Positions 4,205 through 41,812 are shown, numbered from the stretch's first letter. The stretch: DNA of 64,000 nucleotides from a virus (IMGVR_UViG_3300034082_004296:64001-128000); one strand, 5' to 3'. Translations and numbers: made by a program. The notes: generated by a model not told the origin, from the sequence alone.

Positions 4205-6172
4205 ATGTCATATTTGTTAAATTATAAAAATTGGAGAGCACTATATGAAAGCCAAACTAATATTTTTGAAGATGGAGAAGACCCATACGGAGGAGTTGGT
4301 ATGATTGATGATACCAAAATCAAAGATAAAGGCACAGTTGATCCATTTGCAGACATGCCAAAAGAGGGCAAGAAAAGATTAGAGTATTTAGTAAATAAAG
4401 CAGGAGACCTAGATTCACAGGCGATAAAAAAGGCAGGAGCAGCGCCAGCAACTTCACTTCTACCCTACGATGCAATAACTGACTGGATGATTACTGCAGG
4501 TAAGCCTACTACAAGGAGCGATGGAAAAGGAGGATATAAAGATTTTTCACCAGAATGGAAGAAAAGATTTAAAGATAGAGAGCCTTCCATGAAATTAGAA
4601 GACTGTATTCAATGTATGCAGTATTGGAATGGAATAATTGATACGACTAAAACAAAAAAAGAAACTATTGAAATAAACGGTAAACCGTATGATGTTGCAA
4701 ATTATGACACTGCTCGAGTAATTAGACAATTGGATCAATTAAGTAATCTCAAAAAAGTTAAATCTTTAGTAGAAGAGGCATGGAAGGCTAAAGGCATTAT
4801 ATATTTTAATACTGGCTCGCCTTCAGAATATGAGTTTGAAGGAACTAAGTATTCTATTGAGAAAGACAAACAGGTAACATTTGACCCAAATTTAATCGTT
4901 GAAAAGAGTAAGATTTTACTAGAAAAAGCGAAAAAAACATTTGTAAACACTGGAAAAACCAGAAGAAATTCAAAGACTGATATGCTTTCTCCAAACCCCA
5001 ATTCAGATAATGTATGGTTTGATACAGGAGAGGGAGGAAAATATTATTCAAAGAAATCTAGAGATCAAACTGGAAGCTTTTGGCTATGGTATCAAATAAT
5101 ATCGGACGATGCTCAATTTCAAAAGTTATTAGCTAGATTCGATGATCCAACTTATGTGAGGACAGTATTCACAAAAATGACGGAGCAGGATAAGATAAAC
5201 ATAATAAAGGGTATTTCGGACGCTGCACAGAAGAAATTTGAGAAAGGATCAGTCGGAGCAATGGAAGGGATCTATGGCGCTACTTCCATCGTGTGGTGGC
5301 CGGTTGAAGCTAAAGAGACGATGCCAAAAACAACGGTCCTTAAACCAGCTAGTCCAGGAATTGACGTTGAATATGAAAATGAATGGGACTTTTCTTGGCC
5401 GTATGCTAAAGAAGGAGGAGTAGGAAAAGAACTTGCAATGACCTACTTTAAGAGTGATTCAGCAATAATACAAGATGGCAAGGACAAAGAGATAGACAAT
5501 GCAGTCAAGCAAATCATGGCTGAAATTAAGAGCAAAAATGGTACTCTTAAATCATTAAAGTATAGAGTAGTAGCATCGACGAGTGACGAACCTTCTAAAT
5601 ATGCAAGCCCTAATAAAGTAGCCGCAAAATACGATATTGCAAATAATCAACCTTTAGTTAGAGACCGTGCTAAGGTAATCGAAACTGCCCTAACTGCTGC
5701 GATCACTGCGAACGGAATTGATCCGACCCTGGTCACTAAAGACGGCGAAGACCTTACTCCTAATAATATTCTAGACGATGGAAGTGCAAAATACCAAGAG
5801 AAAAAATGGATGCGGCTTGATCATAAGGACCCTAGAGCAACGGCTGCTACTGATGCTGAATATAAAGCACTATTCGCTAAACCTAAACATTCAGGGCTTC
5901 TATTTAATATAGTATATACAACCATTGAAAAGGAAAAGAGTGAACCTACTCCTGAAGAAACGACCGTATCTGATTATGAGGTAGTAGGAGAATGGCTATT
6001 CGAGATCAAGTGGGCAGGCGGAGGAAGCTACAAGAAAAAGAGAAGAAGAACTCACACTAGAAGACCGATGAGGGGAATCCCTTGGGATAAATTGTTTCCG
6101 CCTCTTCCTGCAGGTGGAGGATGGAGCGTCGAAGACTTATGTGACGCATATGGTAGATCAGGACCAGGATAG
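4205..6172 (+). CDS. Late protein with capsid-targeting-like N-terminus and C-terminal OmpA-like domain
   Basis: N-terminus YLLNYKNWRALYES shared with the 6866 ORF; YFKSDSAII...VVASTSDEP...NQPLVRDRAKVI resembles OmpA_C; late motif upstream. Confidence 0.6.
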   Translation: MSYLLNYKNWRALYESQTNIFEDGEDPYGGVGMIDDTKIKDKGTVDPFADMPKEGKKRLEYLVNKAGDLDSQAIKKAGAAPATSLLPYDAITDWMITAGKPTTRSDGKGGYKDFSPEWKKRFKDREPSMKLEDCIQCMQYWNGIIDTTKTKKETIEINGKPYDVANYDTARVIRQLDQLSNLKKVKSLVEEAWKAKGIIYFNTGSPSEYEFEGTKYSIEKDKQVTFDPNLIVEKSKILLEKAKKTFVNTGKTRRNSKTDMLSPNPNSDNVWFDTGEGGKYYSKKSRDQTGSFWLWYQIISDDAQFQKLLARFDDPTYVRTVFTKMTEQDKINIIKGISDAAQKKFEKGSVGAMEGIYGATSIVWWPVEAKETMPKTTVLKPASPGIDVEYENEWDFSWPYAKEGGVGKELAMTYFKSDSAIIQDGKDKEIDNAVKQIMAEIKSKNGTLKSLKYRVVASTSDEPSKYASPNKVAAKYDIANNQPLVRDRAKVIETALTAAITANGIDPTLVTKDGEDLTPNNILDDGSAKYQEKKWMRLDHKDPRATAATDAEYKALFAKPKHSGLLFNIVYTTIEKEKSEPTPEETTVSDYEVVGEWLFEIKWAGGGSYKKKRRRTHTRRPMRGIPWDKLFPPLPAGGGWSVEDLCDAYGRSGPG

Positions 6173-6176
6173 AGGA

Positions 6177-6779
6177 TCACTCTATTCTGTTAGTTAATAA
6201 TAAAGTGGAAGATATTCGATATCTTCCATTTTTGTTTACATAGACCTTTTGATATACTCCACAAAAGGTAGCCTCCTTCTTTAATAGCTTTGAGTTATGA
6301 CCTGGAGACTCGATCCAATAATTTAGGACACACTGTGCAGCTAACTTAGGATCGACTATTTTGGATCCAATATTTTTAAGCCAAAGATCGCCAACTTTTT
6401 GTTTTGTAGGATCCTTAAATACCATTGGTCCAGCATTAAGACAGTTCTCAGCAATCATGCCGCCTGCTCCTAATTTTACGCCAAATCGTTCAACTCTTGT
6501 TTCAGGAGAGACTAGATTTTCAATAAGATGTAGTGAATCATAATTTCGCTCAAAGTGGCCTCCTTCATCGTATATAGACAGGTATTCGCAATGGTGTTCA
6601 CAAGCACGAGTCGCTTTAGAGTCTAGCTTAAGTGGATTGAGCCCATTTTTTTGACGATATTCATTTATGGCATCAAGTAGAAGAGTTGAGAATTCAGCCT
6701 CAGTAGTTAAAAGGTTTTTAGGAACTTGAGAAAAAGTGATCGTAGAGATCAATAGAAGGGTTAATGTTATTAATTTCAT
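6177..6779 (-). CDS. Secreted CAP/SCP-domain protein (start revised to 6779)
   Basis: Signal peptide MKLITLTLLLISTITFSQ; INEYRQKNGLNPL, AENC, YWIESPGHNSKLL CAP motifs. Confidence 0.82.
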   Translation of the reverse strand: MKLITLTLLLISTITFSQVPKNLLTTEAEFSTLLLDAINEYRQKNGLNPLKLDSKATRACEHHCEYLSIYDEGGHFERNYDSLHLIENLVSPETRVERFGVKLGAGGMIAENCLNAGPMVFKDPTKQKVGDLWLKNIGSKIVDPKLAAQCVLNYWIESPGHNSKLLKKEATFCGVYQKVYVNKNGRYRISSTLLLTNRIE

Positions 6780-12066: not shown

Positions 12067-12465
12067 TTATATAGTTATAGTTGAGACCAAATCAAGTGGT
12101 AATTCTAGTGGATCTGCATCATTTAAGGTGGATATTATTCCATAACTAAATTCAAACTCAGGATACTCATTAGTGATAAAGTCGATTGTGTTTAAAACTA
12201 CTGATGCAGAAAGATTGGAGTTTAGGTATATTATCCTACTGTATTTTTCGTTCTTGACATTAATTGCCTTATCTAAAAGTTTCTTAATCTCATAATTTAA
12301 TAAAAAAGACTGCACCTTATTTGGAACAATAAACTTTGTACTAAACTTGTCCTTAATCAGCTTACTCACGTTTAGGATGTAATCGCTACGATCCTTTCGA
12401 TTAAATGTCAGGATAAAGCTCTTATAGTCTTTAACAAAAACAATTGATACTTTTCTCTTTTCCAT
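12067..12465 (-). CDS. Hypothetical protein
   Basis: 132-aa ORF in an operon with dCMP deaminase. Confidence 0.6.
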   Translation of the reverse strand: MEKRKVSIVFVKDYKSFILTFNRKDRSDYILNVSKLIKDKFSTKFIVPNKVQSFLLNYEIKKLLDKAINVKNEKYSRIIYLNSNLSASVVLNTIDFITNEYPEFEFSYGIISTLNDADPLELPLDLVSTITI

Positions 12466-12466: not shown

Positions 12467-12886
12467 CTATATGTCTAGTTTTACAACGTCAATATTTGCA
12501 GCACGCAATATTGTGATTCCAGAAACATCTCGATATGTCTCACGATAAATTACAAGCTTGATTCCTGCCTGGATTATTAGTTTTGAGCACTCCTTACATG
12601 GAGAATAGGTCACATAGAGTGTAGCACCTTCTGTGCTTTGAGTGGATCGAGTCACCTTCATCATTGCATTGGCCTCAGCGTGTAATACATACCAATTAGT
12701 GTCTCCGTTTGCATCTTCACAATCGTTTGGAAAACCCTTAGGCGTGCCGTTAAATCCGTCTGAAATAATGGTACCGTCCTTAACGATTAGAGCACCGACT
12801 TTTTTACGTTTACAACAAGAAAGATTGGACCATTCTGTGGCCATCTTCAAGTAGGTAATATGATATTTAAGATCCTTGTTCGTCAT
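12467..12886 (-). CDS. dCMP deaminase (ComEB-like)
   Basis: SCCKRKKVGA, GFNGTP, HAEANA, SPCKECSK zinc motifs. Confidence 0.93.
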   Translation of the reverse strand: MTNKDLKYHITYLKMATEWSNLSCCKRKKVGALIVKDGTIISDGFNGTPKGFPNDCEDANGDTNWYVLHAEANAMMKVTRSTQSTEGATLYVTYSPCKECSKLIIQAGIKLVIYRETYRDVSGITILRAANIDVVKLDI

Positions 12887-13082
12887 TCTTTTCTTTGGGT
12901 TTAACGATACTGTCCGGTGTAAGAGAATAAACTATCGTGACTATTCCTACCCATTGTGGATAAGAGATGACTGATCTAAATACTTTATCTAGACTAGTCC
13001 ATTCATATATGAAATCACAGAGCAAGGAAATTACTAGTAATTTGATGGCTGTTCCAATTATTGATACTATTGCTTTTTTCAC
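12867..13082 (-). CDS. Small membrane protein
   Basis: Two hydrophobic segments; overlaps both neighbours. Confidence 0.55.
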   Translation of the reverse strand: MKKAIVSIIGTAIKLLVISLLCDFIYEWTSLDKVFRSVISYPQWVGIVTIVYSLTPDSIVKPKEKNDEQGS

Positions 13083-13948
13083 AGGTTTACGTTTTTAAGA
13101 ATCCAATCATATAGCGGATCAGGTAAGTCAGTTGGCTCATCTTGTCCATCAAAGAGAGATACGAAATTAGAGGTTGGTGTACCGATTATGTTAATTAGAT
13201 CTAGATCGACTTTAGGAATCTCTAAGGGCTCAAACTTACGAGTAATCATCTTCTTTGCGATCTCAAAATGACGCTCGTAGATATGAGAAGAGTTAGCGAT
13301 ATGCGTATATGTACCTAACTCTAATTCAGGATATCCTGCATGGTGACGAAGATGGTTCAGCATCTGCGATTGTAGGATAGCAAAGAATGCAATATCTGTA
13401 GGAAGTCCCAAGATCACATCATTGCTGCGCATGCTCACAGTAAGGTTAAGCTTATTATTTCTGATCTGAAAGATTCCATACATTGTACATACAAAATCCT
13501 TATTTCCTTGTCTCTGATGGGTAGGCAGGTTAAAGTGCAGGACAGCCTGTCGTGAATCCTTGTCTTGAGCTAATGATTCAAGTGCCCATTGATATTGAGT
13601 AAAACCGTGTTCATTCTGGTTATTAAATAGCAGATTGCCGTATGAAGAGTTTACAGTATCATCTTCATTTTTAATAGATTCCCAAAACTTTGCGTATTTT
13701 GCGATATATTCAACATCATTTCTACCCATAAAATACCATAGAAATTCTGCAGCAATATACTTGGATTGAGAAGACCTAAACTCGTTTCTATAGAGACACG
13801 AAAGAGGATCTTCAATCACCAATGCTACATCACACATTTCATTGATCCTCATGTCCCGAGGCTGAGTCACATATTCTGGACTAGTCATCAATTCATGTAA
13901 GAGTTCTTCGTATGCGGCAGCAAAGGAATTTGCTTGAATTATTACCAT
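13079..13948 (-). CDS. Thymidylate-synthase-superfamily enzyme, dCMP hydroxymethylase (T4 gp42)-like
   Basis: VNSSYG, DKDSRQAV, DFVCT, MRSNDVILGLPTD (Asp at the specificity position), HIYERHF. Confidence 0.75.
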   Translation of the reverse strand: MVIIQANSFAAAYEELLHELMTSPEYVTQPRDMRINEMCDVALVIEDPLSCLYRNEFRSSQSKYIAAEFLWYFMGRNDVEYIAKYAKFWESIKNEDDTVNSSYGNLLFNNQNEHGFTQYQWALESLAQDKDSRQAVLHFNLPTHQRQGNKDFVCTMYGIFQIRNNKLNLTVSMRSNDVILGLPTDIAFFAILQSQMLNHLRHHAGYPELELGTYTHIANSSHIYERHFEIAKKMITRKFEPLEIPKVDLDLINIIGTPTSNFVSLFDGQDEPTDLPDPLYDWILKNVNL

Positions 13949-13963
13949 AACTTAGTTTTTATT

Positions 13964-13990
13964 TTTATACATGTTACTTTTAAAAAGTTT
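13964..13990 (-). promoter_or_regulatory. Putative early/middle promoter AAAC-N16-GTATAA
   Basis: Minus strand AAAC TTTTTAAAAGTAACAT GTATAAA, 15 nt before the ATG. Confidence 0.6.
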
Positions 13991-14041
13991 CGATTTTTAA
14001 ATAAAACTTTGCTAGCATCATACAATGTATAACTAGTTTGA

Positions 14042-15709
14042 CTAAATTTTAATTATTTCCATTTCTGAGAAATGATCCTTCTGATTTACTAATATTCGAT
14101 GATCAAAAAGTTCTTCAGGTAGAGATTCATGAGAAACAACAAAGATTGTCATATTATATTTGGTTGAATACTCTTTAAGGATTGATATTGCACGATAAAC
14201 ATTTGTCTTATCTAAAGAACTAAAGATTTCATCAAGAAACATTACGTTCATGGTGCTGTGCTTCATTTTAATTATTTCAATAAACGCAAGCAATACAATA
14301 AGGTTCATCTTTTTTCGCTGCCCACTGGATAAACTCTCAGGAGAGATTTGCATTCCTAAATAAGTAATATGTGGATCAAACTCATTATCGAATTCAAATG
14401 AAAACTTAAATTCTAATTTTTCAGAGATCTCAAGAATCCTAGCATTTAGGGTAGGAATAATTCGGTCAATCATATCACGTTTGATTCCATTTTCAGATAG
14501 AAGATCATCTAAACTTAGTGAAACTGATCTGGTAGAATTTAACTTATCGATTGCGTGTGAATCCTCGCCTATTTGATCCTCTAAGCTCTTAATTATCCCA
14601 GAGATAGAAGATATTTCTTCTGATCCATCATTCTCCTGAGCAGCCTCTAGTGAGGACTCTAAAGCTTGTAATTCAGCCTTCTTATTGAAATAATTAGAAT
14701 CAATATCACCCCGATCTAATAATAATGAAGTTAAGCTCTCATTGATCTCATCAGCTAATTTTTTCTTATTAACTAGTGATTCTTTTAATTTAGTAATCTT
14801 CTCTTCGATCTTTTCTTTTATCTCGATTGAAGAATCAGATTTTAAATCATTAAGACAGTGAGGACATCGGTTTTTAGCGTATATTGTGAGTCGGTTCGAT
14901 AAGTCTCTAATCTCTGAATTTATTGTAATAACCTCCTCTTGAGCGGCTTTATTTGTCTTGGTTTGAGAATCAATTTTATCTTTAAGTTTAGTCTTTAAGA
15001 CTAGAGCTGCAGATACTTCTACCTTTTTATTGGTGATATCAAGGGTAAGCTTATCAGTAAGAGCCTCCTTCTTTTTGCTCAGTCTCTCTTTTAGTGCCTC
15101 AAGTTGAGCTTCATAAGTTTCTAAATTAGATTGACTGCTTTTTAGAGTAGCTGAGTGAATATCAAGATCAGATTTATTTTCCTTCAATTCCTCCTTTACT
15201 CTACTCCGCATATCAGAAAGAATATCAATTCCAAATATTCGATCAACAATTTTTCGTTTATCATCTTTGCTTAGATTTACAAATGATTTAAAATCATCAA
15301 ATGAAAGACTAATAGTATTACAAAAAACTGAAAATGGAATACGTGAAAGTTCCTCTTCAATAAACTCATCGACTTTTCTCTTATCTGGTAGATTAAATTG
15401 AGAGCCGTTTATTTTAATATCACTAAAGTTTGGATCAATTCCTCTGTCAAGCTCAACAATCTCACCAGAGTTGGTAACAAACTTTACGTTAGTATAGGCA
15501 TTTCGATTTATCCAATTTGGGATATCTTTCATTTTACGAATAGCCGAACGTCCATATATTGAGACGGTCAGCGCTTCTTTAATTGAAGATTTACCTGCAC
15601 CATTTTCTCCCTCAACTAGGATTAGTCCTGGTTTATCGTCAAACTTAAATGTTTGTAACATATTACCATAAGATAATATGTTTCTATATGAAAATTCTAT
15701 TAGTCTCAT
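14042..15709 (-). CDS. SbcC/Rad50-like recombination ATPase (gp46)
   Basis: GENGAGKSS, coiled coil with CPHC zinc hook, LSSGQ signature, FLDEIFSSLD, VSH. Confidence 0.93.
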   Translation of the reverse strand: MRLIEFSYRNILSYGNMLQTFKFDDKPGLILVEGENGAGKSSIKEALTVSIYGRSAIRKMKDIPNWINRNAYTNVKFVTNSGEIVELDRGIDPNFSDIKINGSQFNLPDKRKVDEFIEEELSRIPFSVFCNTISLSFDDFKSFVNLSKDDKRKIVDRIFGIDILSDMRSRVKEELKENKSDLDIHSATLKSSQSNLETYEAQLEALKERLSKKKEALTDKLTLDITNKKVEVSAALVLKTKLKDKIDSQTKTNKAAQEEVITINSEIRDLSNRLTIYAKNRCPHCLNDLKSDSSIEIKEKIEEKITKLKESLVNKKKLADEINESLTSLLLDRGDIDSNYFNKKAELQALESSLEAAQENDGSEEISSISGIIKSLEDQIGEDSHAIDKLNSTRSVSLSLDDLLSENGIKRDMIDRIIPTLNARILEISEKLEFKFSFEFDNEFDPHITYLGMQISPESLSSGQRKKMNLIVLLAFIEIIKMKHSTMNVMFLDEIFSSLDKTNVYRAISILKEYSTKYNMTIFVVSHESLPEELFDHRILVNQKDHFSEMEIIKI

Positions 15710-16818
15710 TAATCGTATTGTTTGGTGTTTCTCAAAGAATCGTAGATTTCTTTAAAACGGTCTACTATTTTTTGAGACTGATGTGATGGAAGATTCATTA
15801 TCTTTATTCTCTCATCAAGTAGAGTAAAGATATTATATTCATAATTTGAATCTATTTCAATATCGCTCTTTTCTCTTAATTGATCCTTTGAATAAGAGCC
15901 TAATTCAAGACGACGATGTCCATAATCTTTTACAAGTTCAGTAAATTGAGATATTGGAAACTTTTTTGAAAATTCAGATTCTATTAAAACATCAATAAAA
16001 TTATTATTGAAGAGTTCACGAATATCTTCAGGAGTCTCATTTAATAGCTCAAAGATATCAAATTTTAGATGTTTTGGAGAAAAGTGATTTGGCACAAATT
16101 TTTCTTGTACTTCTTTTCCACTAACATCTAATACGTAGAAACCTTTAGTGTTTCCTCGATCTCCTCTATCCATTTCATATGGAGTTCCAACATAGAGAAC
16201 ATTTCCTTTTTCTTGGCGAATATGAATATGTCCAGAATAAATTCTAGAGAATGATTGGATATCTTCCGGTTCTAGGCCATGCTCAAGCTTTTGAACTTTA
16301 TTAAAGTTAAATCCTTTAAAATCAGTATGGCAAAATACGTATCTAGCTGAGATATTCTTTTGAATTTGAGCTTTAAGTTCAGGTAGATTCTCAATCCACG
16401 GTAACATTAGAAACTTATGAGAATTTATCGATAATATTTCCGGTTTTGAGTATACTTGGAAATTAGGATATATTTTATCAAATCCTTCTAGTGAATGAGT
16501 ATCAGTTCGATCTTTATAGTATACGTCATGGTTACCAAGAATTACAAAGACTCCTCTTTTAAATTTTTTAGTAAGTACTTCAGCTATCTTTAGGGATAGT
16601 TTATAGATACGTACATTAGTAGATTCCCTAACGTGATTCCAATCACCAACTTGGACAAGTATATCTGTTTCTGGATTAAATCCTTCTTCATCAATCATTT
16701 TAATAAAATGATCAATTAGATATTGACTTTGAATTTCAGACCATTCAACTGAATTGTTTCGTATACCTAGGTGAAGATCACCAAGTACAAATATTTTTCG
16801 AATATTGTCTAATTTCAT
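15709..16818 (-). CDS. SbcD/Mre11-like nuclease (gp47)
   Basis: GDLHLG, GDWNH, GNHD, GHIH metallophosphoesterase motifs; coupled to gp46. Confidence 0.93.
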   Translation of the reverse strand: MKLDNIRKIFVLGDLHLGIRNNSVEWSEIQSQYLIDHFIKMIDEEGFNPETDILVQVGDWNHVRESTNVRIYKLSLKIAEVLTKKFKRGVFVILGNHDVYYKDRTDTHSLEGFDKIYPNFQVYSKPEILSINSHKFLMLPWIENLPELKAQIQKNISARYVFCHTDFKGFNFNKVQKLEHGLEPEDIQSFSRIYSGHIHIRQEKGNVLYVGTPYEMDRGDRGNTKGFYVLDVSGKEVQEKFVPNHFSPKHLKFDIFELLNETPEDIRELFNNNFIDVLIESEFSKKFPISQFTELVKDYGHRRLELGSYSKDQLREKSDIEIDSNYEYNIFTLLDERIKIMNLPSHQSQKIVDRFKEIYDSLRNTKQYD

Positions 16819-17042
16819 CCTTGAGTTGCTAACTGGTCAATATCTATTACTTTTGAAATACTCGTAAGTTTTGCTAAAAACGCAGTAAGAGCAGCAGGGG
16901 TCGCAAAAGTATAAGTGGTTGGCAGGATTGAGTTAGCATCATAGAACGTTATGTCGGTTGATGAAGTCTGTTCATACCGATATACTTGCTCAAGGTTAAG
17001 ATATACTGATCCACCTGTGTGAGTTAATTTTATCCAAATCAT
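16815..17042 (-). CDS. Hypothetical protein
   Basis: 75-aa ORF coupled on both sides. Confidence 0.55.
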   Translation of the reverse strand: MIWIKLTHTGGSVYLNLEQVYRYEQTSSTDITFYDANSILPTTYTFATPAALTAFLAKLTSISKVIDIDQLATQG

Positions 17043-17587
17043 TAGTGTATTCTTTTTTTATGCATTTTTCCTTCTAGGAATTGGTATTTTTTATTTAGTT
17101 CAATGATTAGTATTTCCTGAATCTCAGTTTCAAGGGAATCAAAGATCTTTTTATATTCCATTGAAGATATTGAAGAGATTGCTTCTAAAATATAGATTGG
17201 ACTATAGAAAGTAATGCCCTTATTAGTAACGTCCAAGTTTTCATGAACCCTATTAAAAATCAGGTTAATGTCCTCCTTTGAAAATCTTATTTTTGCAACG
17301 GAGGAGTTTTTGTCGGTCAGCTCACTAACATACTTGCTTAATACATCGTCAGTCTTTAAAAAATCAAAGATTATATCAAGTATAAATGAAGATTCGAGCT
17401 GCTCCTCATAATCATAAAGATCCTTTAGATAATTATCGGAATAATCGGAAGATACTGATATCTTTTTTGAAAACTCATACTCATCAGAGTCTCTAAGCTT
17501 GTCTCCATTATAATAACTATTATTAAATATTTTATCTTCTCTTACCTGGTCGTCAGAGTTTTCTTCTGTGAATTCTTCGGTGCTCAT
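17042..17587 (-). CDS. Hypothetical protein
   Basis: 181-aa acidic ORF in the replication operon. Confidence 0.6.
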   Translation of the reverse strand: MSTEEFTEENSDDQVREDKIFNNSYYNGDKLRDSDEYEFSKKISVSSDYSDNYLKDLYDYEEQLESSFILDIIFDFLKTDDVLSKYVSELTDKNSSVAKIRFSKEDINLIFNRVHENLDVTNKGITFYSPIYILEAISSISSMEYKKIFDSLETEIQEILIIELNKKYQFLEGKMHKKRIH

Positions 17588-17601
17588 TCATAAAGATTAT
17601 T

Positions 17602-19086
17602 TTATATTGAATTAAAGAGAGCGTCATAGTCGTCCTCAATTAAGTTTTCATTTACAAACGATGGAGAGGCATTAGTTATTTCAGAGTATTCTGATCTTAA
17701 CTCATCTGCCATTCGACTCACTTCTTCATCGTCGCTATAGAATTCGCTGTTTTGTCCAACTTCTTCAGAAAGTCTAAAGTAGTCCTTATGCATAGTATAA
17801 AACTTGTAACTTTCTTCGTAACCGTTGTCTCTATTCGCAATCACTTTGATTTTCATTCTACTCTCTAATGGACTTCTCATAAGACCAAATAGAGCGTCAA
17901 CTGTGTGGATTAGACCAAATGACTCAGCTACTGAATCCATACCCAAATCAAAGTTGTCAATGTCTTCTCTACGAATCTGAGTAGCACTAATAACACACCA
18001 TTCATTTCGCATAGCAACACCTCTAAGTTCTTCAGAGATTGCTTTGATCTTTTCATATAGGCCGTTTTGAGTGTTGATTGGTTTAAGTAGGTTTAAGTAA
18101 TCAACAACGATGACTTTAAATTTTCGATTCATCTTTTGTTCTAGTCGAACAAAATAATTCTCAATGTCGATTGCAGTTGCGCCACCGGTTGGAAATTCTT
18201 TGATAACAAGTTCACCAATAGTTTGACCTGAAGCCTTAAGTTCATTTATCTTTTTCTCAATTAGCTTAGCTGCATGTTCGTCTGTGATATTAGCATAATC
18301 TTCAGACTTGATGTTTAAAATATTTGAACCGATTCTTTTCATATAGGCACGATCAGCTAATTCTACCGTGACTAGTCCAGTTGCATTTCCAGTCAAGAAT
18401 GATCGAGCTGCAATATTTCCAAGCACCATTGATTTTCCAACCTTTGGTCTACCTTGAAAAACAACTAGCGCTTTTGAATTCCAGCCACCACCCTGTACCT
18501 TATCTAAGAATGGAAATCCAGTAGGACTACCTGATTTAGAAATTTGGATATGGGATTCAGGGTTAAAGAAATTTAAACCAGTATCTGCGCTAGAAAAATT
18601 TAGAGCAAGCTTACTACTAATATCATTTCTGATTTTTTCAGAAATCTTATCAATATTTCCAGGATCAATTGGGGTAGTCTTTAAATAAGTAAGAAGATCA
18701 AATACTGTTAGGTTTAGATTTCTTAGAAGAATAAACGACCTAACGTACTTATAAAGATAATCATAATTGTATTCGGTCAAGTTAAAGGCATATAACTCAT
18801 TAAACTCGTCATCATTTAGATTAACATGAGAAAGATCAAGGTAACTCTTTAATTCCTTTCGGTTTGGAATCTTTTCGTATTCTTTAAAAAACTTAACGGC
18901 TGCCTTAAATGACTCCTGTCGATCATCCTCATTAAAATAGCTAGGCTTCATCATTGTGATTAGCTCTTCTCTTCTTAACGAATCATGATTGGATGGACGT
19001 AGGTCATTTATGTCATTCTCAGAATTAAGAATAAAATTCCAAACCATCTTTTCAAGAGAGTCAATATTTTCTGTAAAATCAATCAT
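17602..19086 (-). CDS. Replicative DnaB-like helicase (T4 gp41-like)
   Basis: PTGFPFLD, GRPKVGKS, IKEFPTG, VVDYLNLL, ATQIRR, VAESFG. Confidence 0.92.
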   Translation of the reverse strand: MIDFTENIDSLEKMVWNFILNSENDINDLRPSNHDSLRREELITMMKPSYFNEDDRQESFKAAVKFFKEYEKIPNRKELKSYLDLSHVNLNDDEFNELYAFNLTEYNYDYLYKYVRSFILLRNLNLTVFDLLTYLKTTPIDPGNIDKISEKIRNDISSKLALNFSSADTGLNFFNPESHIQISKSGSPTGFPFLDKVQGGGWNSKALVVFQGRPKVGKSMVLGNIAARSFLTGNATGLVTVELADRAYMKRIGSNILNIKSEDYANITDEHAAKLIEKKINELKASGQTIGELVIKEFPTGGATAIDIENYFVRLEQKMNRKFKVIVVDYLNLLKPINTQNGLYEKIKAISEELRGVAMRNEWCVISATQIRREDIDNFDLGMDSVAESFGLIHTVDALFGLMRSPLESRMKIKVIANRDNGYEESYKFYTMHKDYFRLSEEVGQNSEFYSDDEEVSRMADELRSEYSEITNASPSFVNENLIEDDYDALFNSI

Positions 19087-19417
19087 TCGTTAAGTAAAAA
19101 TAAGTTAATCCTTTTTTTGTAAAATAGATGAATTCTCCTTGAGTAGTAAGATATTCTTCGTTGATCATCGTCTTTAATGATTTAACTAAGTTTGTCTTAA
19201 AAGTTTCATCTTTTATCCTTTCACCAAAAACGTATTTTAGAGACTTGGATGAAAACTTTATGCCATCCGGGTCAATATCCTTGTCTTTGGAAGCAGCAAC
19301 CCTTATAATGTACTGTAGGATCTCAAAAAGGAGGGTAAACTCATCGCTCAATCCCTCCTCATTATATAAGTTCAGATAATACTTTATCGGTAGATCAGAA
19401 CGTAGATTCATCGTCAT
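19079..19417 (-). CDS. Hypothetical protein between UvsX and helicase
   Basis: 112-aa ORF overlapping both neighbours. Confidence 0.55.
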   Translation of the reverse strand: MTMNLRSDLPIKYYLNLYNEEGLSDEFTLLFEILQYIIRVAASKDKDIDPDGIKFSSKSLKYVFGERIKDETFKTNLVKSLKTMINEEYLTTQGEFIYFTKKGLTYFYLTND

Positions 19418-20597
19418 CGTTTAAATCATTAAGTTCACTTGTCTCTAATAGATCAATTTCATCTTGTGTTTCTGGGAATTTAAAGGTAGGCTTAATTACT
19501 TTTTCATCAAGTTCCAATAGTACGTCATGAGTAAATAATCGAGCTGAAAAAAATTCTTTGACTTGTACTAAATCACCATTGTGTCGAATAACATAATTTT
19601 TTCCAAGTTTCTTTGGTAGAAAATAGAATTTTTCTCCATCTACTTCAAATTCTGAACAGATTGATTGTTCGTCTGCTTTAAGCTTTGAAAACTCTTTTTC
19701 AGTCAATTTATTTCCTCGACCTACTCCACAATTTTCCCAACTAACAAACTGTTCAAGACCAACATATTGATTCATACCTTTATGGAAAGAGATATGGAAT
19801 TCAATGTCGATTGGTTTAGCTAAACGATTCTTTCTAGTCTTGGACCTAACGATAATTCCAGTAGTGGTTTTGGCATCGTCTCTTAAGGTACCTTTACTCA
19901 ACATCAAGATTATTGAAGCTGAAAACTCAGGACCACCACCACCAGACATTCCTTTAGGAGTGTATTGATCCATCGACGCATATGTGTGATTTGTAAAAAT
20001 AAATGGAACTTTTAAGTTAGATAGTTCAAGAGTAAATGACTTGAATAGAGATCTCATCTCTTTAGAACGAAGTCCCATATCTGATGCATTTTTACCAGCA
20101 TCCATGTCTCGCTTGCTCTTATCTGTATCCAACATTCCGACTGAATCTACAAAGATCGCAGCCTTTAATCCTGGATTTTCTCTCATCGTTTCGATAAAAT
20201 CATTGATAAAGAACTTAACATCACTGATTAAACCCATACGAAGGTATTTTAATTTTTCTAGATCTACTCCAAACTTAGTGTAGTCAGACCGGTCAATTGC
20301 ACCCTCAGTATCGATATAGAAAACGAAATAGTCTTTCTTTTGAAGTTCACGAACAGCATTTAAACAAAGAAATGTTTTACCTGCACCAGAGTCTCCAGCA
20401 ATTCCAATACTTCGAGTGTTTGGATATCCTCCAAATACTGAACCTGAAATTTGTGCATTTAAAAGATAATTTCCAGTTGGAATATAATCATCAATGTCGG
20501 AGAATCCCATTAAGGTGACTTTGGACTTTACTTTCTTTTCTAATAGATCATTGAACTTATTAAAAGCATTAATTGCGTCATTTGTTGACTTTGCCAT
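19395..20597 (-). CDS. uvsX: RecA/UvsX recombinase
   Basis: GDSGAGKT, IDTEGA, VDSVGML, DMGLRSK, TNHTY, SGGGG. Confidence 0.92.
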   Translation of the reverse strand: MAKSTNDAINAFNKFNDLLEKKVKSKVTLMGFSDIDDYIPTGNYLLNAQISGSVFGGYPNTRSIGIAGDSGAGKTFLCLNAVRELQKKDYFVFYIDTEGAIDRSDYTKFGVDLEKLKYLRMGLISDVKFFINDFIETMRENPGLKAAIFVDSVGMLDTDKSKRDMDAGKNASDMGLRSKEMRSLFKSFTLELSNLKVPFIFTNHTYASMDQYTPKGMSGGGGPEFSASIILMLSKGTLRDDAKTTTGIIVRSKTRKNRLAKPIDIEFHISFHKGMNQYVGLEQFVSWENCGVGRGNKLTEKEFSKLKADEQSICSEFEVDGEKFYFLPKKLGKNYVIRHNGDLVQVKEFFSARLFTHDVLLELDEKVIKPTFKFPETQDEIDLLETSELNDLNDDDESTF

Positions 20598-20616
20598 AAT
20601 TAATTTGTTTTAATAT

Positions 20617-20643
20617 ATTCTACTAGAGAATGGGCAAAAGTTC
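20617..20643 (-). promoter_or_regulatory. Putative early/middle promoter (GAAC-N16-GTAGAAT)
   Basis: Same spacing as the other copies; 19 nt before the uvsX ATG. Confidence 0.5.
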
Positions 20644-21200
20644 TATTCAGAGATGTATGAAAGTAATAAAATAGAACAGGATAAGGCTAACGTATCGCAT
20701 ATCTCTCCTCTCATGACTCTGCTAAATCTTACTTTATCTATAGAGTGAAGCTTTGATTCGGGATTAAGAACTTTTGCTGTAAATCCGGACGGTTCATCGC
20801 TATAATTAGTTAGGTTGACTGCATAACACTTATAAGTCTTAGTAAAAGGAACAGTATGTTGGATTTGACCTAAATAAAAAATATCATTTACATCAATATC
20901 ATTCAATCCAAGTTCATGGTCTATGCAATCTGATAGAGACTCATGATAGGTGTTAAATTCGTCTGGTTCAAGTGTAGTTGTGATGCATCGATGGTTTTCT
21001 CCATCCAATACATAATCGTGATATTTAGCTAAGTATAAGTTTTTTATTTGGCCGTTTTCATTAACGTCAAAAGGAAGCAAACATATTGCTTCCTTTGAGG
21101 ATGAAATTCTTTTAAAGCTTCCCTTGTCTCCAGTGAAACTTAGAATCTTAAACTTATCGTCTGAATATTCTTCTTTTGAATTAAACTGATCATTCTTCAT
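20643..21200 (-). CDS. Degenerate Nudix-fold-like protein
   Basis: AICLLPF...HELG...FYLG...YAVNLT layout resembles phage Nudix proteins, but the Nudix box is not canonical. Confidence 0.4.
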   Translation of the reverse strand: MKNDQFNSKEEYSDDKFKILSFTGDKGSFKRISSSKEAICLLPFDVNENGQIKNLYLAKYHDYVLDGENHRCITTTLEPDEFNTYHESLSDCIDHELGLNDIDVNDIFYLGQIQHTVPFTKTYKCYAVNLTNYSDEPSGFTAKVLNPESKLHSIDKVRFSRVMRGEICDTLALSCSILLLSYISE

Positions 21201-21828
21201 GGATCTCGGTGATATTTACAGTAGGTCCAGACTTGCTTCTCTGAGTTTTTAGTGGAACCACCATGTCTGAGATAGCTGACTGTATTACAGTTTTATTTAT
21301 CGCTCGAAAAACGTAATCAGATAATTCACTTAAAAACTTTTCTTTGTCCTTAGCGTTACTATACATCATCTTTAGAAAATCCTGTTCAGGAAGATTCATA
21401 GTTACTTGAAGATCTATTTTACGCTCTTCTGAATTAAACATCTCAAACATATTAGTAGTAGGCTGAGCCTGTTGAAAATGTCGAGGCTGAGCATCACCAT
21501 TTTGTTCTAAAGAATTTGGCGGCATTGTCTGAGTTTGATTTACTCTAGGTTGAACAGTCGGTCTCTTTGGTCCAGAAATGGATTCAACTTCTGCTTTACT
21601 TAAAGGCTGCATGTCTCCATGTATCATGAGTAGACTTGTATTAAGTTGAGCAGTATCTACACTTGACCCATCATCAAATAGGGCAAAGAATCGGTCTCCC
21701 CTAGGCTCAATATTTCTGCAGGTAACAACTTTGCCTAATAATTCAGGACGATTTGTCTTGATCCACTGAAATTTTGCTCCAGAAAAGTTTTCCATTAAGG
21801 AAATTAGTTTATTTTCATCAAATTGCAT
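21190..21828 (-). CDS. Hypothetical protein (start revised to 21828, MQFDENK)
   Basis: Longer start overlaps the upstream gene. Confidence 0.6.
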   Translation of the reverse strand: MQFDENKLISLMENFSGAKFQWIKTNRPELLGKVVTCRNIEPRGDRFFALFDDGSSVDTAQLNTSLLMIHGDMQPLSKAEVESISGPKRPTVQPRVNQTQTMPPNSLEQNGDAQPRHFQQAQPTTNMFEMFNSEERKIDLQVTMNLPEQDFLKMMYSNAKDKEKFLSELSDYVFRAINKTVIQSAISDMVVPLKTQRSKSGPTVNITEIHEE

Positions 21829-21844
21829 CTGATCTTGATTTTTT

Positions 21845-22177
21845 TTAGGAATTAAGTTCTTCCATAGTTGAGGCAGTCTTATTCTCCTCAATAGCTTTAA
21901 TAAATTCTTCATCTAACGAACCATTATTTGGAAGATTTGAGTCTGGTTGAACCAGTGTGATTGTTGAAAAGTGATCTGCTGGAATAGGATCAATCGACTT
22001 ATTCCATAGTGGATTATACATTTCGCCAGTTGAGCGATTTATTGCAAACTTATCTTTGCTTGTAGGCAAAGCTGCCATCTTTTTTCTAACCTCCTTGATT
22101 TGTTGAGGAGATGGTGAATTTTTACATGCGTCTAGAAATCCTTCTAGCCAGTTTACAAAATCTTGTGTTGTGTTCAT
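21845..22177 (-). CDS. Hypothetical protein
   Basis: MNTTQDFVNWLEGFL N-terminus typical of small phage proteins. Confidence 0.6.
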   Translation of the reverse strand: MNTTQDFVNWLEGFLDACKNSPSPQQIKEVRKKMAALPTSKDKFAINRSTGEMYNPLWNKSIDPIPADHFSTITLVQPDSNLPNNGSLDEEFIKAIEENKTASTMEELNS

Positions 22178-22178
22178 A

Positions 22179-22409
22179 TTAATCGGTTATTTTAAAATTT
22201 ATCTCTTCTTTTAGTTTTTCAATGTCTAAATCATCTGCAGTGTCTGCATTTAGGACAGTCAGTGTCAGCTTTTCGATATCACTGGATCGATATGCTATCA
22301 CATAATAGTCAGTTAATTTATCTTCTAATTGAGCAATTGACTTATTAATGGGTTGTAGTTGAGTTATTGAATCTTCCGGAAAAGCAACTACGAGTATTGG
22401 CTTTGCCAT
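22179..22409 (-). CDS. Hypothetical protein
   Basis: Coupled (TAATG) to the polymerase stop. Confidence 0.55.
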   Translation of the reverse strand: MAKPILVVAFPEDSITQLQPINKSIAQLEDKLTDYYVIAYRSSDIEKLTLTVLNADTADDLDIEKLKEEINFKITD

Positions 22410-23830
22410 TATTTTGAATTTTTTAACTGTTTAATCTCACCCTGAGTCTTGATACGTTCATCATATAGACGAGTAAGAATTTTCCTAGCAACTGAATCTG
22501 TTTTACTTGAAAACATAGTATCGTTCTTAGTATGGATTTCAGTACCGTCTTTTTTAACTTTATCGGTTTTTCCAAGATAGGTATCTGGTGAGATATTAAA
22601 TTGAATTTGTATGTTAGGATACATTGATGAAAAGTCATAGCATGCAACTGCACCATAATATCCAGGAATTGGATCCTTTACATAGGCGCCGGCATAGGTT
22701 CCATCAATAACTTCTTCTCCCCAAGGAAGTTTCATCATCTTCATGTTCTTGTTTAAGAACTCACGACACATTAGAATTTCAGCAATATACACTGGACTAA
22801 ATACTTTATTTACTTCAACTTGAGCGACGTTTGCCATAGCGAAGGCAACATCCATTAGAGCTAGCTTATCTTCGATTAGTTTAACTAGAATAACGTCAAT
22901 TACGTTATACATAGTAAAAAGATAAGTATCTTTTTGAAACTCTCTAAATGAAGGATAATCGTGGTGCAATTTAGCTGTACCTAGGACAAGATCTGCAATG
23001 TAATCAAGCTTATAGTTTTCTACAACTTTATAAGGCTTCATTTTTTCAAAGACTTGCATGTAATCAAGAACTCCTAAGTGAGTAGGAATCTTGACTTTAG
23101 AAACAGTTGATCGAGTTGGCATTTTTTCCATCATATCGATCTTTAGGTTCTTACCGCGATTCATCAGATACTTCCAGTCAAATTCTGTTACATTCCAGCC
23201 AGTCACAAAATTAAAGTGGGGCATAATCTTATGGAAATAGAATTCCATTAATTCATCTTCACTCTTAAAGAACTTATATTTAATTTTGAAATCTTGATTA
23301 AAGAGGCGAGCATCTTCTGGTTTTTTAGGAACGGTTTTTCTAAAGTATTCATTGACCTCTTTTTCCATTTGAACGATCTGTTCTGGTGCAAGACCATCAG
23401 GCTGATCTTCGGTATTTAAAATAGAGAGAATGTAGGTGATGTTGTCTTCATTACAGAATGAGATCAACCCAACTGGCATTCTAGCTTTGTCTGGTTCTGG
23501 AAAAGAGTCATCAATTAATTTAATCTCAATATCGAGATATGTTTTCTTAGGAAAATTATCAAAGTTATAGACTAGCTCAAGTTCTTCAGCCGTTAATTTT
23601 TCTTGAATTAACTCTTGAATTCTAAACTGGTTCATGTATTGTCCTTGAGACTGACCCTTTTTTACAAACTTTCCATTCCAATTTTTAGTAGTGGTTGGCG
23701 TTTGAGATTCTACCCAATTATACATTTCATGGTCCATTAGTCTTTTTCTAATAAATTCTATTTTTCCATTATTGTTATAATAAGAAATTGTTAAAATATT
23801 ATCATTTAATACTTCGGCGCCAATTATCAT
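22409..23830 (-). CDS. Family B DNA polymerase, N-terminal subunit (exonuclease + motif A only; split gene)
   Basis: ExoI YLDIE, ExoII GWNVTEFDWKYL, ExoIII YNVIDV, YAGAYVKDP, motif A YDFSSMYP, NISPDT; ends after the first fingers helix, with no motif B or C. Confidence 0.88.
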   Translation of the reverse strand: MIIGAEVLNDNILTISYYNNNGKIEFIRKRLMDHEMYNWVESQTPTTTKNWNGKFVKKGQSQGQYMNQFRIQELIQEKLTAEELELVYNFDNFPKKTYLDIEIKLIDDSFPEPDKARMPVGLISFCNEDNITYILSILNTEDQPDGLAPEQIVQMEKEVNEYFRKTVPKKPEDARLFNQDFKIKYKFFKSEDELMEFYFHKIMPHFNFVTGWNVTEFDWKYLMNRGKNLKIDMMEKMPTRSTVSKVKIPTHLGVLDYMQVFEKMKPYKVVENYKLDYIADLVLGTAKLHHDYPSFREFQKDTYLFTMYNVIDVILVKLIEDKLALMDVAFAMANVAQVEVNKVFSPVYIAEILMCREFLNKNMKMMKLPWGEEVIDGTYAGAYVKDPIPGYYGAVACYDFSSMYPNIQIQFNISPDTYLGKTDKVKKDGTEIHTKNDTMFSSKTDSVARKILTRLYDERIKTQGEIKQLKNSK

Positions 23831-24060
23831 ACTTTAGGTTTAAACATTTCATTAATATGACCACATTTAGCACAAGCAATTACTGGAATTGGGACTATTG
23901 AGTCTTGATCCGAGCCTGTCATAAATCTTGAAACTTTTTTAATCATCATTTTTTCTTCAAACACCTTTCCTTGACACTCTTCACATTCCATGTATGGAGC
24001 ATCTGCTAGATTAATGTTTAATTGCGGTTGAGATTGGCCGCCGAGTTGTGTTGAATCCAT
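23827..24060 (-). CDS. Zinc-ribbon protein (start revised to 24060)
   Basis: CEEC...CAKCG. Confidence 0.65.
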   Translation of the reverse strand: MDSTQLGGQSQPQLNINLADAPYMECEECQGKVFEEKMMIKKVSRFMTGSDQDSIVPIPVIACAKCGHINEMFKPKV

Positions 24061-24076
24061 AGTTATTATACTTTTT

Positions 24077-24544
24077 TTAATAGCCTCTTTTCTGTCTGTC
24101 ACGATTTTCTGCGTTCTTTGCCATGTACATGTTGTACATTTCCTGCGGAGTCATGCCAATTGAGATAGCATAATTCATAAAGAAGTGTAACATGTCAATG
24201 ATTTCAAACTTTGCTTCAAGCTGATCACTTTCAGTTAGATCTGAGAACTTCATAAAGCCGTACTTGCCAAAGTCCTTTTTCCAATACTTCCAAATAGCGT
24301 TTCCGCTACCGTCCTTGATTCCGCCTAGGGCGTCAGTTGCTTCATGAATTTCATCTACCATCGCATGAGTATTTGCATGCCAAAATGACATAATTTCGCG
24401 AAGAGTCATGTTGTCAAAATTCCATCCATATACGTGATTTTGAGTGTCCTTTTGGAGAGCCATGATGTCGCCTAAAGTGTCAGTACTTTTTGAATATAGA
24501 TCTTCGATCGTAAGATCGGCACAAGTATTATCGATATTTGCCAT
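24077..24544 (-). CDS. Dimeric dUTPase/dCTPase (T4 gp56-like)
   Basis: NTCADL, DEIHE, WKYWK, DQLEAKFEIIDMLHF, KNAENRDRQKRGY parallel gp56. Confidence 0.85.
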   Translation of the reverse strand: MANIDNTCADLTIEDLYSKSTDTLGDIMALQKDTQNHVYGWNFDNMTLREIMSFWHANTHAMVDEIHEATDALGGIKDGSGNAIWKYWKKDFGKYGFMKFSDLTESDQLEAKFEIIDMLHFFMNYAISIGMTPQEMYNMYMAKNAENRDRQKRGY

Positions 24545-32889: not shown

Positions 32890-33112
32890 CTTTGTTAGAA
32901 TCTTTCTTTTTTTCAATAATCACCCCTCCACGTTCCTTCCACATTCCTCGATTTATTTGAATATCTTTATTTTTACCATCTATTGTGATCGCGCCATCTT
33001 TTACTCTTTTGACTTGATATCGCGTTCCCATCCAGCGAATGGTGTCCCCTTTTTCAATAGATTCAAATTCATTGTCCTTGCTCTCGTTTATGAACTGGTT
33101 GAAATTAAGCAT
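32879..33112 (-). CDS. Small putative head-internal protein
   Basis: MLNFNQFINES; GATAAATAA 16 nt upstream on the minus strand. Confidence 0.6.
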   Translation of the reverse strand: MLNFNQFINESKDNEFESIEKGDTIRWMGTRYQVKRVKDGAITIDGKNKDIQINRGMWKERGGVIIEKKKDSNKDEK

Positions 33113-33128
33113 GAAACTAGATTTTTTA

Positions 33129-33137
33129 TTATTTATC
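33129..33137 (-). promoter_or_regulatory. Late promoter motif GATAAATAA
   Basis: 16 nt before ATG 33112, just after the nrdA terminator. Confidence 0.7.
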
Positions 33138-33142
33138 TAAAC

Positions 33143-33170
33143 AAAAAAGCAGCAAAGGTTATTTGCTGCT
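33143..33170 (-). terminator. Intrinsic terminator after nrdA
   Basis: AAAAAAGCAGCAAA-GGTTA-TTTGCTGCT. Confidence 0.7.
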
Positions 33171-33194
33171 CCGATATATTTTTTTATTAGTTGC

Positions 33195-37935: not shown

Positions 37936-40320
<2,385 letters not shown>

Positions 40321-40337
<17 letters not shown>

Positions 40338-41055
40338 ACTCTTCTACTACAGAAAGGTTTGATAGTTTTAAAAGAGTTTGTATTCCGGCAAAAACATCAC
40401 GTTGACAATATTCAGCAATTCGTTGAGTATCTCCATCTTGCCAAAAAACTCGACTAACTTCTTCCCCTTTGATATCTCCCTTTGGAGTCTCAAGACCAAT
40501 TGAGGTCACTAATAATTCAAGAGAAACAAATCCCTCTTGCCATGCTCCAAAACTCCATAACTCAGAAGTATCAATAAATGGCATTTCCCAAGGCTTAAGG
40601 TTTTGGATCTGTAAGCCCTTAGGTAGGGATCTTCCATGGATCAGGAGTCTCTTGCACATCATGGGTATGTCAAAGCGTTTGATATTATGGCCTGAAAACT
40701 TTAAGGCTGCAAACTTATCGAATACTTTTTGAATTCCATCTAATACTTCGTCTTCATGCCCTGAACAGTAGCTTTTTATGATTACATTAGGATCCTCTCC
40801 AATAAAGTTAAGTCGACCAAAGGTAGCACAGACTATTCTCGCAAACTCTGGAGTCAAGGCCGCTTTTGCTTCATATAATTGCTCGTCAGTCATGTCTCGA
40901 TTCTCTTCAAATCGGGAACGAAGATATTCACAACGTTTTGACCAAAGCTCAGCCATCTTTGGCTTATTAAGAGCTAATTGATCTAGTGATTCGTATTCTG
41001 ATGCTGTTTCCAGGTCAAAGAATACTGTTTTTGCTAATTCTGCAGGTGTGTACAT
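40321..41055 (-). CDS. Stand-alone PolB-related DEDD 3'-5' exonuclease
   Basis: FFDLET, GHNIKRFDIP, KPWE..IDT..LW.FG, YCQRDV. Confidence 0.85.
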
Positions 41056-41065
41056 GTATTTGGTT

Positions 41066-41188
41066 TTAATTATTATCGTTATCTAAATCGTCAGCCTCAT
41101 TGTATACTCTTCGAACCACTTCTATTATTAGAACGATTGCTAAAAAAGTAGCTATAAAAGCTGCTGAAATAATTACTAATGTTTTCAT
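41066..41188 (-). CDS. Possible 40-aa single-TM protein
   Basis: Manual ORF MKTLVIISAAFIATFLAIVLIIEVVRRVYNEADDLDNDNN fills the gap. Confidence 0.45.
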   Translation of the reverse strand: MKTLVIISAAFIATFLAIVLIIEVVRRVYNEADDLDNDNN

Positions 41189-41203
41189 AGTCTTCTATTT
41201 TTT

Positions 41204-41812
41204 TTAATCCCACCAGTGCTTCATACCGTTTCCATTGAACCACTTATTCCAGACTTCTTCTGTACCGGTTTTAGGGTTTTCGGATTTTGCTTTATCTAAG
41301 AGCATGATATAGTGAGTATGTTCCTGTCCTTCAAATATCTTCCAAAGTTCTTTCCATTCTTTATCTTCTAATTCATGAGAAAGCTCAAACAGTTTACGGT
41401 TTTTTTCGGTCACCTTTTTAGGTTCTCCATCACCAGTAATACTATAATTTAGGTTTACTTTATAACCTAGCTCCCCTTCTGCTAACTCAAGATAATCTTC
41501 ATTTGATTGTCGATTAAGTATCTCAATCGCTCTCTTGATTGCCGCAACTTTTTTTAGTCGAGGCTCGTCTACTTCGTTACCGTGATATTCTAATGTATGG
41601 GCTAAAGGTTCAAGCGAACGGCTTAGGATCTTCATTTGATAACTGGAGTCCCATGACCTATATTGCCAAATAACTTTCCAGAAAAAAAAGATATTCTTTA
41701 TTCCTTGCACTAGGTCGTATCTGAAAAAATTCCATGCTTGCCAGTACCATCTCTGACGATTGATTATTCTCTGAATTGAGTCAAAAAACCCGTCTGCAAA
41801 TTTAATTTCCAT
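41204..41812 (-). CDS. Hypothetical protein
   Basis: 202 aa, Trp-rich, ends GMKHWWD. Confidence 0.65.
   Translation of the reverse strand: MEIKFADGFFDSIQRIINRQRWYWQAWNFFRYDLVQGIKNIFFFWKVIWQYRSWDSSYQMKILSRSLEPLAHTLEYHGNEVDEPRLKKVAAIKRAIEILNRQSNEDYLELAEGELGYKVNLNYSITGDGEPKKVTEKNRKLFELSHELEDKEWKELWKIFEGQEHTHYIMLLDKAKSENPKTGTEEVWNKWFNGNGMKHWWD

Follow-up and report, generated by a model that had tools for sequence, protein, structure and literature searches.

Cytosine-modifying systems of phages and the locus under study

Phage T4 replaces the cytosine of its DNA with 5-hydroxymethylcytosine (5hmC), and encodes gp42, a deoxycytidine monophosphate (dCMP) hydroxymethylase with the thymidylate synthase (TS) fold (EC 2.1.2.8; PDB 1B49, 1B5E and 6A9A), as well as the hydrolase gp56 and a dCMP deaminase. 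Other TS homologues of phages include the dCMP methyltransferases of the Xp12/PaMx74 type, which occur with a deaminase selective for 5-methylcytosine (5mC) (bioRxiv 10.1101/2024.12.05.627091), and the flavin-dependent 5-hydroxy-dCMP synthases RB69 gp48 and DLP3 gp80 (PMC13326640). The locus described here lies in a 64,000-nucleotide stretch (the window), which is bases 64001-128000 of the 176,210-bp linear IMG/VR virus contig IMGVR_UViG_3300034082_004296, with an estimated completeness of ~70%. The contig comes from an uncultured freshwater T4-like phage, and the locus encodes a TS-family enzyme, a dCMP deaminase and a gp56-like hydrolase, which together probably direct a T4-style replacement of cytosine with 5hmC. 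A megablast search of the region against known phages gave no match. The following minus-strand open reading frames (ORFs) are concerned, in window coordinates:

24077..24544 (-): all-alpha nucleoside triphosphate pyrophosphohydrolase of the T4 gp56 family, predicted deoxycytidine triphosphatase/deoxyuridine triphosphatase (dCTPase/dUTPase), 155 aa, from BLASTP and PHROGs
13079..13948 (-): TS-family enzyme, predicted dCMP 5-hydroxymethylase and functional analogue of T4 gp42, 289 aa, from PF00303 and active-site residues
12867..13082 (-): short ORF of 71 aa, flanked by the TS homologue and the deaminase, without Pfam or PHROG match
12467..12886 (-): dCMP deaminase, 139 aa, from PF00383 and phrog_174
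12067..12465 (-): conserved 132-aa ORF (orf132) at the end of the TS-deaminase module, from gene-order conservation

In the order of transcription, the 155-aa ORF is followed by the N-terminal half of a family-B DNA polymerase and homologues of UvsX, gp41, gp47 and gp46, and then, on the same strand, by the 289-aa, 71-aa, 139-aa and 132-aa ORFs. Gene 42 of T4 is likewise found among replication and recombination genes (uvsX, 41, 43, 46 and 47). The 289-aa protein shares with gp42 the TS fold, the residues at positions 143, 146, 147, 169 and 177 (E. coli ThyA numbering) and the RSND motif; it differs in its length (289 vs 246 aa, at 26-28% identity) and in the deaminase gene immediately adjacent to its own. 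The TS homologues of Xanthomonas phage Xp15 and Acinetobacter phage MD-2021a, at ~34% identity, are among the closest in named and annotated phages, and have the same D143, T147, D169 and D177 signature and the same order of TS gene and then deaminase gene. Both phages carry a carbamoyltransferase gene, annotated as NodU-family or putative, beside these two genes, and this gene set would be expected for the 5hmC-derived base 5-carbamoyloxymethylcytosine (the system of PMC8670742). In the contig studied here, by contrast, no carbamoyltransferase was seen, and Xp15 and MD-2021a have small genomes of siphovirus size with a different replication module.

Active-site residues of the TS-family enzyme

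The 289-aa ORF is a member of PF00303 (Pfam scan, E 2.8e-26), and its best solved relative is the T4 dCMP hydroxymethylase 1b49 (E 1.5e-20), followed by the cytidine monophosphate hydroxymethylase MilA (~8e-18) and, further down, by ThyA enzymes (~1e-13 and weaker). An earlier, sequence-only reading had taken this ORF for a cytosine-specific TS homologue, quoting the motifs VNSSYG, KDFVCT, MRSNDVILGLPTD and HIYERHF, which are all present, and setting them beside the T4 gp42 motifs INSNYG, DFMCT, MRSNDVVFGFRND and HVYSRHF, which are correct. The switch from Asn to Asp on which that reading rested is borne out by the alignment, in which Asp185 of the ORF falls opposite T4 Asp179 and E. coli ThyA Asn177, and Cys154 opposite the catalytic Cys (E. 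coli C146, T4 C148). In E. coli ThyA numbering, L143 thus corresponds to Asp151 of the ORF, C146 to Cys154, H147 to Thr155, D169 to Asp177 and N177 to Asp185. For comparison, reference genes were taken from annotated phage records and aligned, with position 143 counted back from the catalytic Cys, and gave the following residues:

289-aa enzyme of this contig: 143 Asp151, 147 Thr155, 169 Asp177, 177 Asp185
T4 gp42: 143 D, 147 T, 169 D, 177 D
E. coli ThyA: 143 L, 147 H, 169 D, 177 N
PaMx74 TS homologue (phage with 5mC in place of cytosine): 143 N, 147 P, 169 D, 177 D
RB69 gp48 (5-hydroxy-dCMP synthase): 143 E, 147 T, 169 N, 177 D
SP10 deoxyuridine monophosphate (dUMP) hydroxymethylase: 143 D, 147 N, 169 D, 177 N

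Around position 143, KDFVCT of the contig enzyme stands opposite DFMCT in T4, LAPC in E. coli and NVPC in PaMx74; around position 169 its RSND stands opposite RSQN of RB69 gp48, and Asp185 lies within a PTD motif. Searches with the protein gave 811 matches at E <= 1e-5 and 278 loci in IMG/VR, and KDFVCT, RSND and PTD are invariant in 200 aligned relatives.

Published work on tested enzymes provides rules by which these residues can be read. The change N177D confers use of dCMP, an Asp or Glu in place of L143 accompanies hydroxymethyl products as opposed to methyl ones, and D169N marks flavin-dependent 5-hydroxy-dCMP synthases such as RB69 gp48 (PMC13326640); of all positions, 177 and 147 show the strongest association with cytosine-modified contigs (PMC8670742). 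The alignment reproduces the published signatures of the tested enzymes, which serves as a check on the method. The combination D143/T147/D169/D177 is the gp42 pattern, and fails those of ThyA, the 5-hydroxy enzymes and PaMx74. A canonical ThyA, which needs Asn177, Leu143 and His147, was rejected, as the contig enzyme has Asp, Asp and Thr at these positions. A 5-hydroxy-dCMP synthase of the RB69 gp48 type was also rejected: RB69 gp48 and DLP3 gp80 share Asp177 and an acidic residue 143 with the contig enzyme, but have D169N, where the latter retains Asp. The sequence-only reading had left the final base among 5hmC, 5mC and other C5-modified forms; by the published residue rules, a 5-hydroxymethyl product is now favoured over a 5-methyl one, and a 5-hydroxy product is argued against.

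Phylogeny of the TS-family enzyme

In a maximum-likelihood tree built from 32 sequences by a quick search, the enzyme is placed away from ThyA. The canonical ThyA sequences (that of E. coli and the second TS of one relative, G002) split first with 99% support, and PaMx74 branches next. All other sequences fall into one clade with 99% support, comprising T4 gp42, RB69 gp48, the dUMP hydroxymethylases of SP10 and M6-like phages, the Xp15/Acinetobacter sequences and the family of the contig enzyme, itself monophyletic with 99% support. The branches that lead to gp42 and to gp48 are very long. This placement indicates that the enzyme belongs with the hydroxymethylases and hydroxylases, and stops short of demonstrating orthology to gp42. 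The Xp12/PaMx74 dCMP methyltransferase type, for which one reference was at hand, also fits poorly: Asp177 agrees with this type, but residue 143 is Asp, and PaMx74 lies outside the clade that holds the contig enzyme.

Thymidylate synthases of the contig and its relatives

Automatic annotation names the relatives of the TS-family protein thymidylate synthase, and the profile search of the 176-kb, ~70% complete contig found a single PF00303 gene and no ThyX. It could be supposed from this that the enzyme is an ordinary TS which converts dUMP into thymidine monophosphate (dTMP), fed by the deaminase and with the gp56-like protein serving as a dUTPase, in a phage with unmodified DNA; deaminase, dUTPase and TS would together make up the normal dTMP pathway. 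This interpretation is barely credible, as Asn177, Leu143 and His147 are all replaced, invariantly so in the 200 relatives, and the tree sets the family apart from ThyA with 99% support. It also conflicts with what was found in relatives when five larger related contigs were searched for a second TS. One of these (G002, locus L104) encodes, besides the Asp-type gene, a full-length canonical ThyA (E 6.7e-88) with the motifs LPPCH, RSVD and PFN and with L143, H147 and N177, and another (G004, locus L105) encodes a ThyX besides the Asp-type gene (E 7.7e-54). A true TS thus coexists with the Asp-type gene in these phages, as td coexists with gp42 in T4, so that the Asp-type gene is not their thymidylate synthase and has a different job. 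Neither ThyA nor ThyX was found in G001 (83% complete), suggesting that some members may rely on the host. Within the phage group, TS is a variable trait, with ThyA, ThyX or neither present.

The dCMP deaminase and conservation of the module

The 139-aa ORF matches PF00383 (E 8.5e-24) and phrog_174 (E 2.2e-52) and has the zinc-binding HAE and PCxxC motifs, as HAEANA and SPCKEC. Among solved structures it is closest to 4p9c (E 1.4e-38), the 138-aa deoxycytidylate deaminase of cyanophage S-TIM5, and next to T4 Cd (1vq2). These matches agree with its earlier assignment as a dCMP deaminase. Judged by its sequence, it looks like an ordinary dCMP deaminase, for which activity on modified cytosine nucleotides would be possible.

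Gene order was counted in 80 related loci. The deaminase gene follows the TS gene in 79 of them, and the contig of the remaining one ends just past the TS gene. The 132-aa ORF lies directly 3' of the deaminase in 77 of the 80, with 52-100% identity, and gave no lead in Pfam, PHROG or ESM Atlas. The 71-aa ORF, which has two hydrophobic stretches by eye, is poorly conserved (36 of the 80, 33-58% identity). In the MetaGPA study, 70% of the deaminase genes from cytosine-modified contigs had a TS gene within 3 kb, vs 6% of those from unmodified ones (bioRxiv 10.1101/2024.12.05.627091), and here, too, the two genes are no more than 3 kb apart.

This linkage bears on two further explanations. In the first, the TS homologue would be a dCMP methyltransferase of the kind found in Xp12 and PaMx74, the phage would replace cytosine with 5mC, and the deaminase would make thymidine nucleotides from methylated cytosine nucleotides, leaving no need for a separate TS. 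The Asp at position 177, the order of TS and deaminase genes shared with PaMx74, the lack of a detected ThyA or ThyX in the 176 kb and the retention of a ThyA-like C-terminal segment would all fit, and TS homologues linked to deaminases often make 5-methyl-dCMP (bioRxiv 10.1101/2024.12.05.627091). This explanation is nevertheless unlikely: Asp143 is of the hydroxymethyl type where PaMx74 has Asn143 and Pro147, PaMx74 is not part of the clade with 99% support, the nearest solved relative of the deaminase, 4p9c, is a dCMP deaminase, and some relatives carry a ThyA or ThyX of their own. In the second, the TS homologue and the deaminase would form a bypass in which dCMP is turned into 5-hydroxymethyl-dCMP and then 5-hydroxymethyl-dUMP, or, in a methyl version, into dTMP; the end product would be a uracil derivative and the modified or supplied base a thymine-side one, with cytosine in the DNA canonical or partly replaced. 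The tight and nearly universal linkage of the two genes and a contig with no TS of its own speak for such a route, as does the ability of gp56-like enzymes to act on dUTP; moreover, seven phage deaminases gave 5-hydroxymethyldeoxyuridine in cells making 5-hydroxymethyldeoxycytidine (bioRxiv 10.1101/2024.12.05.627091). It appears quite improbable given that the deaminase looks standard, that relatives with ThyA or ThyX make ordinary dTMP, that no enzyme removing dTMP was recognised, and that T4 has a dCMP deaminase alongside gp42 with no such bypass.

The gp56-like hydrolase

The 155-aa ORF had been called gp56-like from its sequence, and proves to be a true homologue of T4 gp56: BLASTP aligns the two end to end (28% identity over 149 of 155 aa, E 2e-22), the acidic motifs DE..E and FE..D line up, and the ORF matches phrog_173, phrog_18650 and phrog_12184, three families that T4 gp56 matches as well, in an identical order. 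It is accordingly a predicted dCTPase/dUTPase. An annotation note on the T4 record states that gp56-like enzymes also hydrolyse dUTP. No trimeric dUTPase (PF00692) was found in a profile search of the contig; T4 is likewise not known to have a separate trimeric dUTPase. Closer relatives of the contig carry a gp56-like gene wherever the fetched flank reaches far enough.

Proposed pathway

The cytosine-specific TS homologue, gp56-like hydrolase and dCMP deaminase proposed by the sequence-only reading are supported by the residues at positions 143, 147, 169 and 177, by the tree, by the ThyA and ThyX of relatives and by the homology to gp56. From these homologies and residues, their conservation, the order of the genes and the presence of a second, true TS in some relatives, we infer a substrate (dCMP), a product (5-hydroxymethyl-dCMP), a full or partial replacement of cytosine, a kinase and possibly a sugar. 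First, the gp56-family hydrolase would convert dCTP and dCDP (and dUTP) to monophosphates, emptying the dCTP pool and supplying dCMP. The TS-family enzyme, using methylene-tetrahydrofolate and Cys154, would then place a one-carbon unit onto C5 of dCMP, with Asp185 selecting cytosine. Asp151, located where the active site opens, may admit water to the exocyclic methylene intermediate, and it is proposed that the product is for this reason 5-hydroxymethyl-dCMP rather than 5-methyl-dCMP. A kinase, possibly a phage enzyme with the thymidylate kinase (Tmk) fold, and the host nucleoside diphosphate kinase would raise this product to the triphosphate, to be incorporated by the split family-B polymerase. 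The dCMP deaminase would meanwhile turn some dCMP into dUMP, from which dTMP could be made by the host ThyA or by a phage ThyA or ThyX; a phage gene of this kind may lie in the 30% of the genome that is missing. As a last step, 5hmC might be decorated further, for instance by glycosylation.

Several points weigh against this pathway. The residue rules are correlations drawn from a few dozen tested enzymes, and in the contig enzyme Arg127 is replaced by Gln. Its alignment also shows a ThyA-like C-terminal segment, unlike gp42; in ThyA, this segment helps the active site to close. In the tree, the enzyme is not specifically sister to T4 gp42, and the branching order within the shared clade is unresolved. 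Since the contig has no detected TS of its own, there is room for a route to dTMP by way of the TS-family enzyme. No T4 gp1-type deoxynucleoside monophosphate (dNMP) kinase, alpha- or beta-glucosyltransferase, Alc, DenA or DenB was found in the contig. Finally, a search for phrog_173 gave no match in four relatives that are more distant but carry the TS-deaminase module (G001-G004, loci L111-L114; one is 83% complete). In these, the sheath gene adjoins the polymerase region and the gp56-like gene that usually sits between them is missing from its place; the hydrolase is therefore not an obligate partner of the module. T4-style replacement of cytosine with 5hmC is still the probable interpretation, and the weight left over after this interpretation, the ordinary TS, the methyltransferase and the bypass falls to unknown chemistry.

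If 5hmC replacement is correct, a large group of uncultured freshwater T4-like phages (278 related loci in IMG/VR) carries a non-canonical cytosine in its DNA, which would affect restriction, CRISPR and the steps of sequencing-library preparation, and the "thymidylate synthase" labels in this group are misannotations. Placing 5hmC in the DNA is a well-known anti-restriction strategy, and this phage group is very probably a further one that does so. The principle itself dates back to T4, and both the residue rules and the association of TS and deaminase genes are published. A literature search on flavobacterial or freshwater phages returned nothing specific on this pathway in this phage group. 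The value of the finding thus lies in annotation and ecology, unless the form of the final base, the only point that is possibly new, proves to be so.

Candidate kinase and glycosyltransferases

The later enzymes of a T4-like pathway were sought throughout the contig. BLASTP of T4 gp1, alpha-gt, beta-gt, td, frd, tk, dam, alc, denA, denB and arn against the 211 ORFs of the contig gave no match, and profile searches with phrog_139 (T4 gp1) and phrog_7922 (T4 beta-glucosyltransferase, BGT) found nothing. The sequence-only reading had reported no visible glycosyltransferase in the window, and none was seen there among the part of the window ORFs that was scanned. Beyond the proteins reported here, Pfam and PHROG scans of ORFs inside and outside the window gave no further glycosyltransferase, kinase or DNA methyltransferase; most of the scanned ORFs outside the window were without a family. 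The search for a dNMP kinase thus failed for the gp1 type and yielded a Tmk-fold candidate outside the window, and that for a glycosyltransferase beyond the window failed for the T4 types and yielded a candidate with the GT-B fold:

contig 39749-40345: P-loop protein, 198 aa, candidate dNMP kinase, from thymidylate-kinase profiles and fold
contig 162818-163882: GT-B glycosyltransferase, 354 aa, from the predicted structure

Both profile matches of the 198-aa protein are weak (PF02223, E 0.0046, below the Pfam cutoff; phrog_761, E 2.6e-4). Its structural model, with a predicted local distance difference test (pLDDT) score of 76.6, has Foldseek matches that are nearly all thymidylate kinases. 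The protein is well conserved in the phage group, where JGI names many of its relatives thymidylate kinase, and phrog_761 also includes RB69p045 and the kinase adjoining the TS homologue of Chryseobacterium phage MA9V-2. The gene belongs to a cluster at contig 39165-42821 made up of a HAD phosphatase (HAD_SAK_1), the Tmk-fold P-loop kinase and a 624-aa fusion of RNA-ligase-like and cytidylyltransferase parts. These genes resemble RNA-repair genes, and the cluster could have a role in nucleotide salvage or in RNA repair.

The 354-aa protein has no Pfam or PHROG match, and BLASTP against T4 BGT was not significant. Its model (pLDDT 90.7) has a GT-B fold, with T4 BGT (1bgu, E 3.7e-6) as the top Foldseek match. 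In VIA-align, BGT scored Z 15.5 (root-mean-square deviation 4.1, 281 residues aligned), tied with many GT4 enzymes at Z 16-17. Membership in the T4 BGT family (phrog_7922) was therefore rejected, and the general GT-B fold is all that is supported. Going by the model, the protein is a glycosyltransferase, and at most a candidate for a part in DNA decoration. It has 276 relatives (E <= 0.001), which among the matches listed are mostly from uncultured-phage and metagenome contigs, and it was not found in five more distant relatives, a weak negative. An FkbM-type methyltransferase gene (PF05050) adjoins it, the pair spanning contig 161934-163882. Elsewhere, inside a structural-gene region, the genes of a GT25 glycosyltransferase and a sulfotransferase (PF13469) overlap at contig 136266-137713. 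With 5hmC as a precursor, the GT-B and FkbM enzymes or the GT25 enzyme and the sulfotransferase might build a base not yet described, such as an O-methylated or sulfated glycosyl-5hmC, and this would then occur in a widespread freshwater group of T4-like phages, which we regard as rather improbable.

Other features of the contig

Palindromes of 6 bp that contain C show no avoidance in the contig (median observed/expected 1.01, none <0.5), which fits a globally protected genome and is weak evidence for it; T4 itself shows some palindrome avoidance. The family-B DNA polymerase is split in two: an N-terminal ORF of 473 aa at window 22409-23830 (-) and a second ORF of 478 aa at contig 32896-34332 (-), ~52 kb away from the first, both match T4 gp43. 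Also encoded are a Cpn60/GroEL-type chaperonin, a UvdE UV endonuclease and a patatin-like phospholipase, the coordinates listed for these three genes being window 37936-39561 (-), window 43486-44448 (-) and contig 5267-6226 (+).

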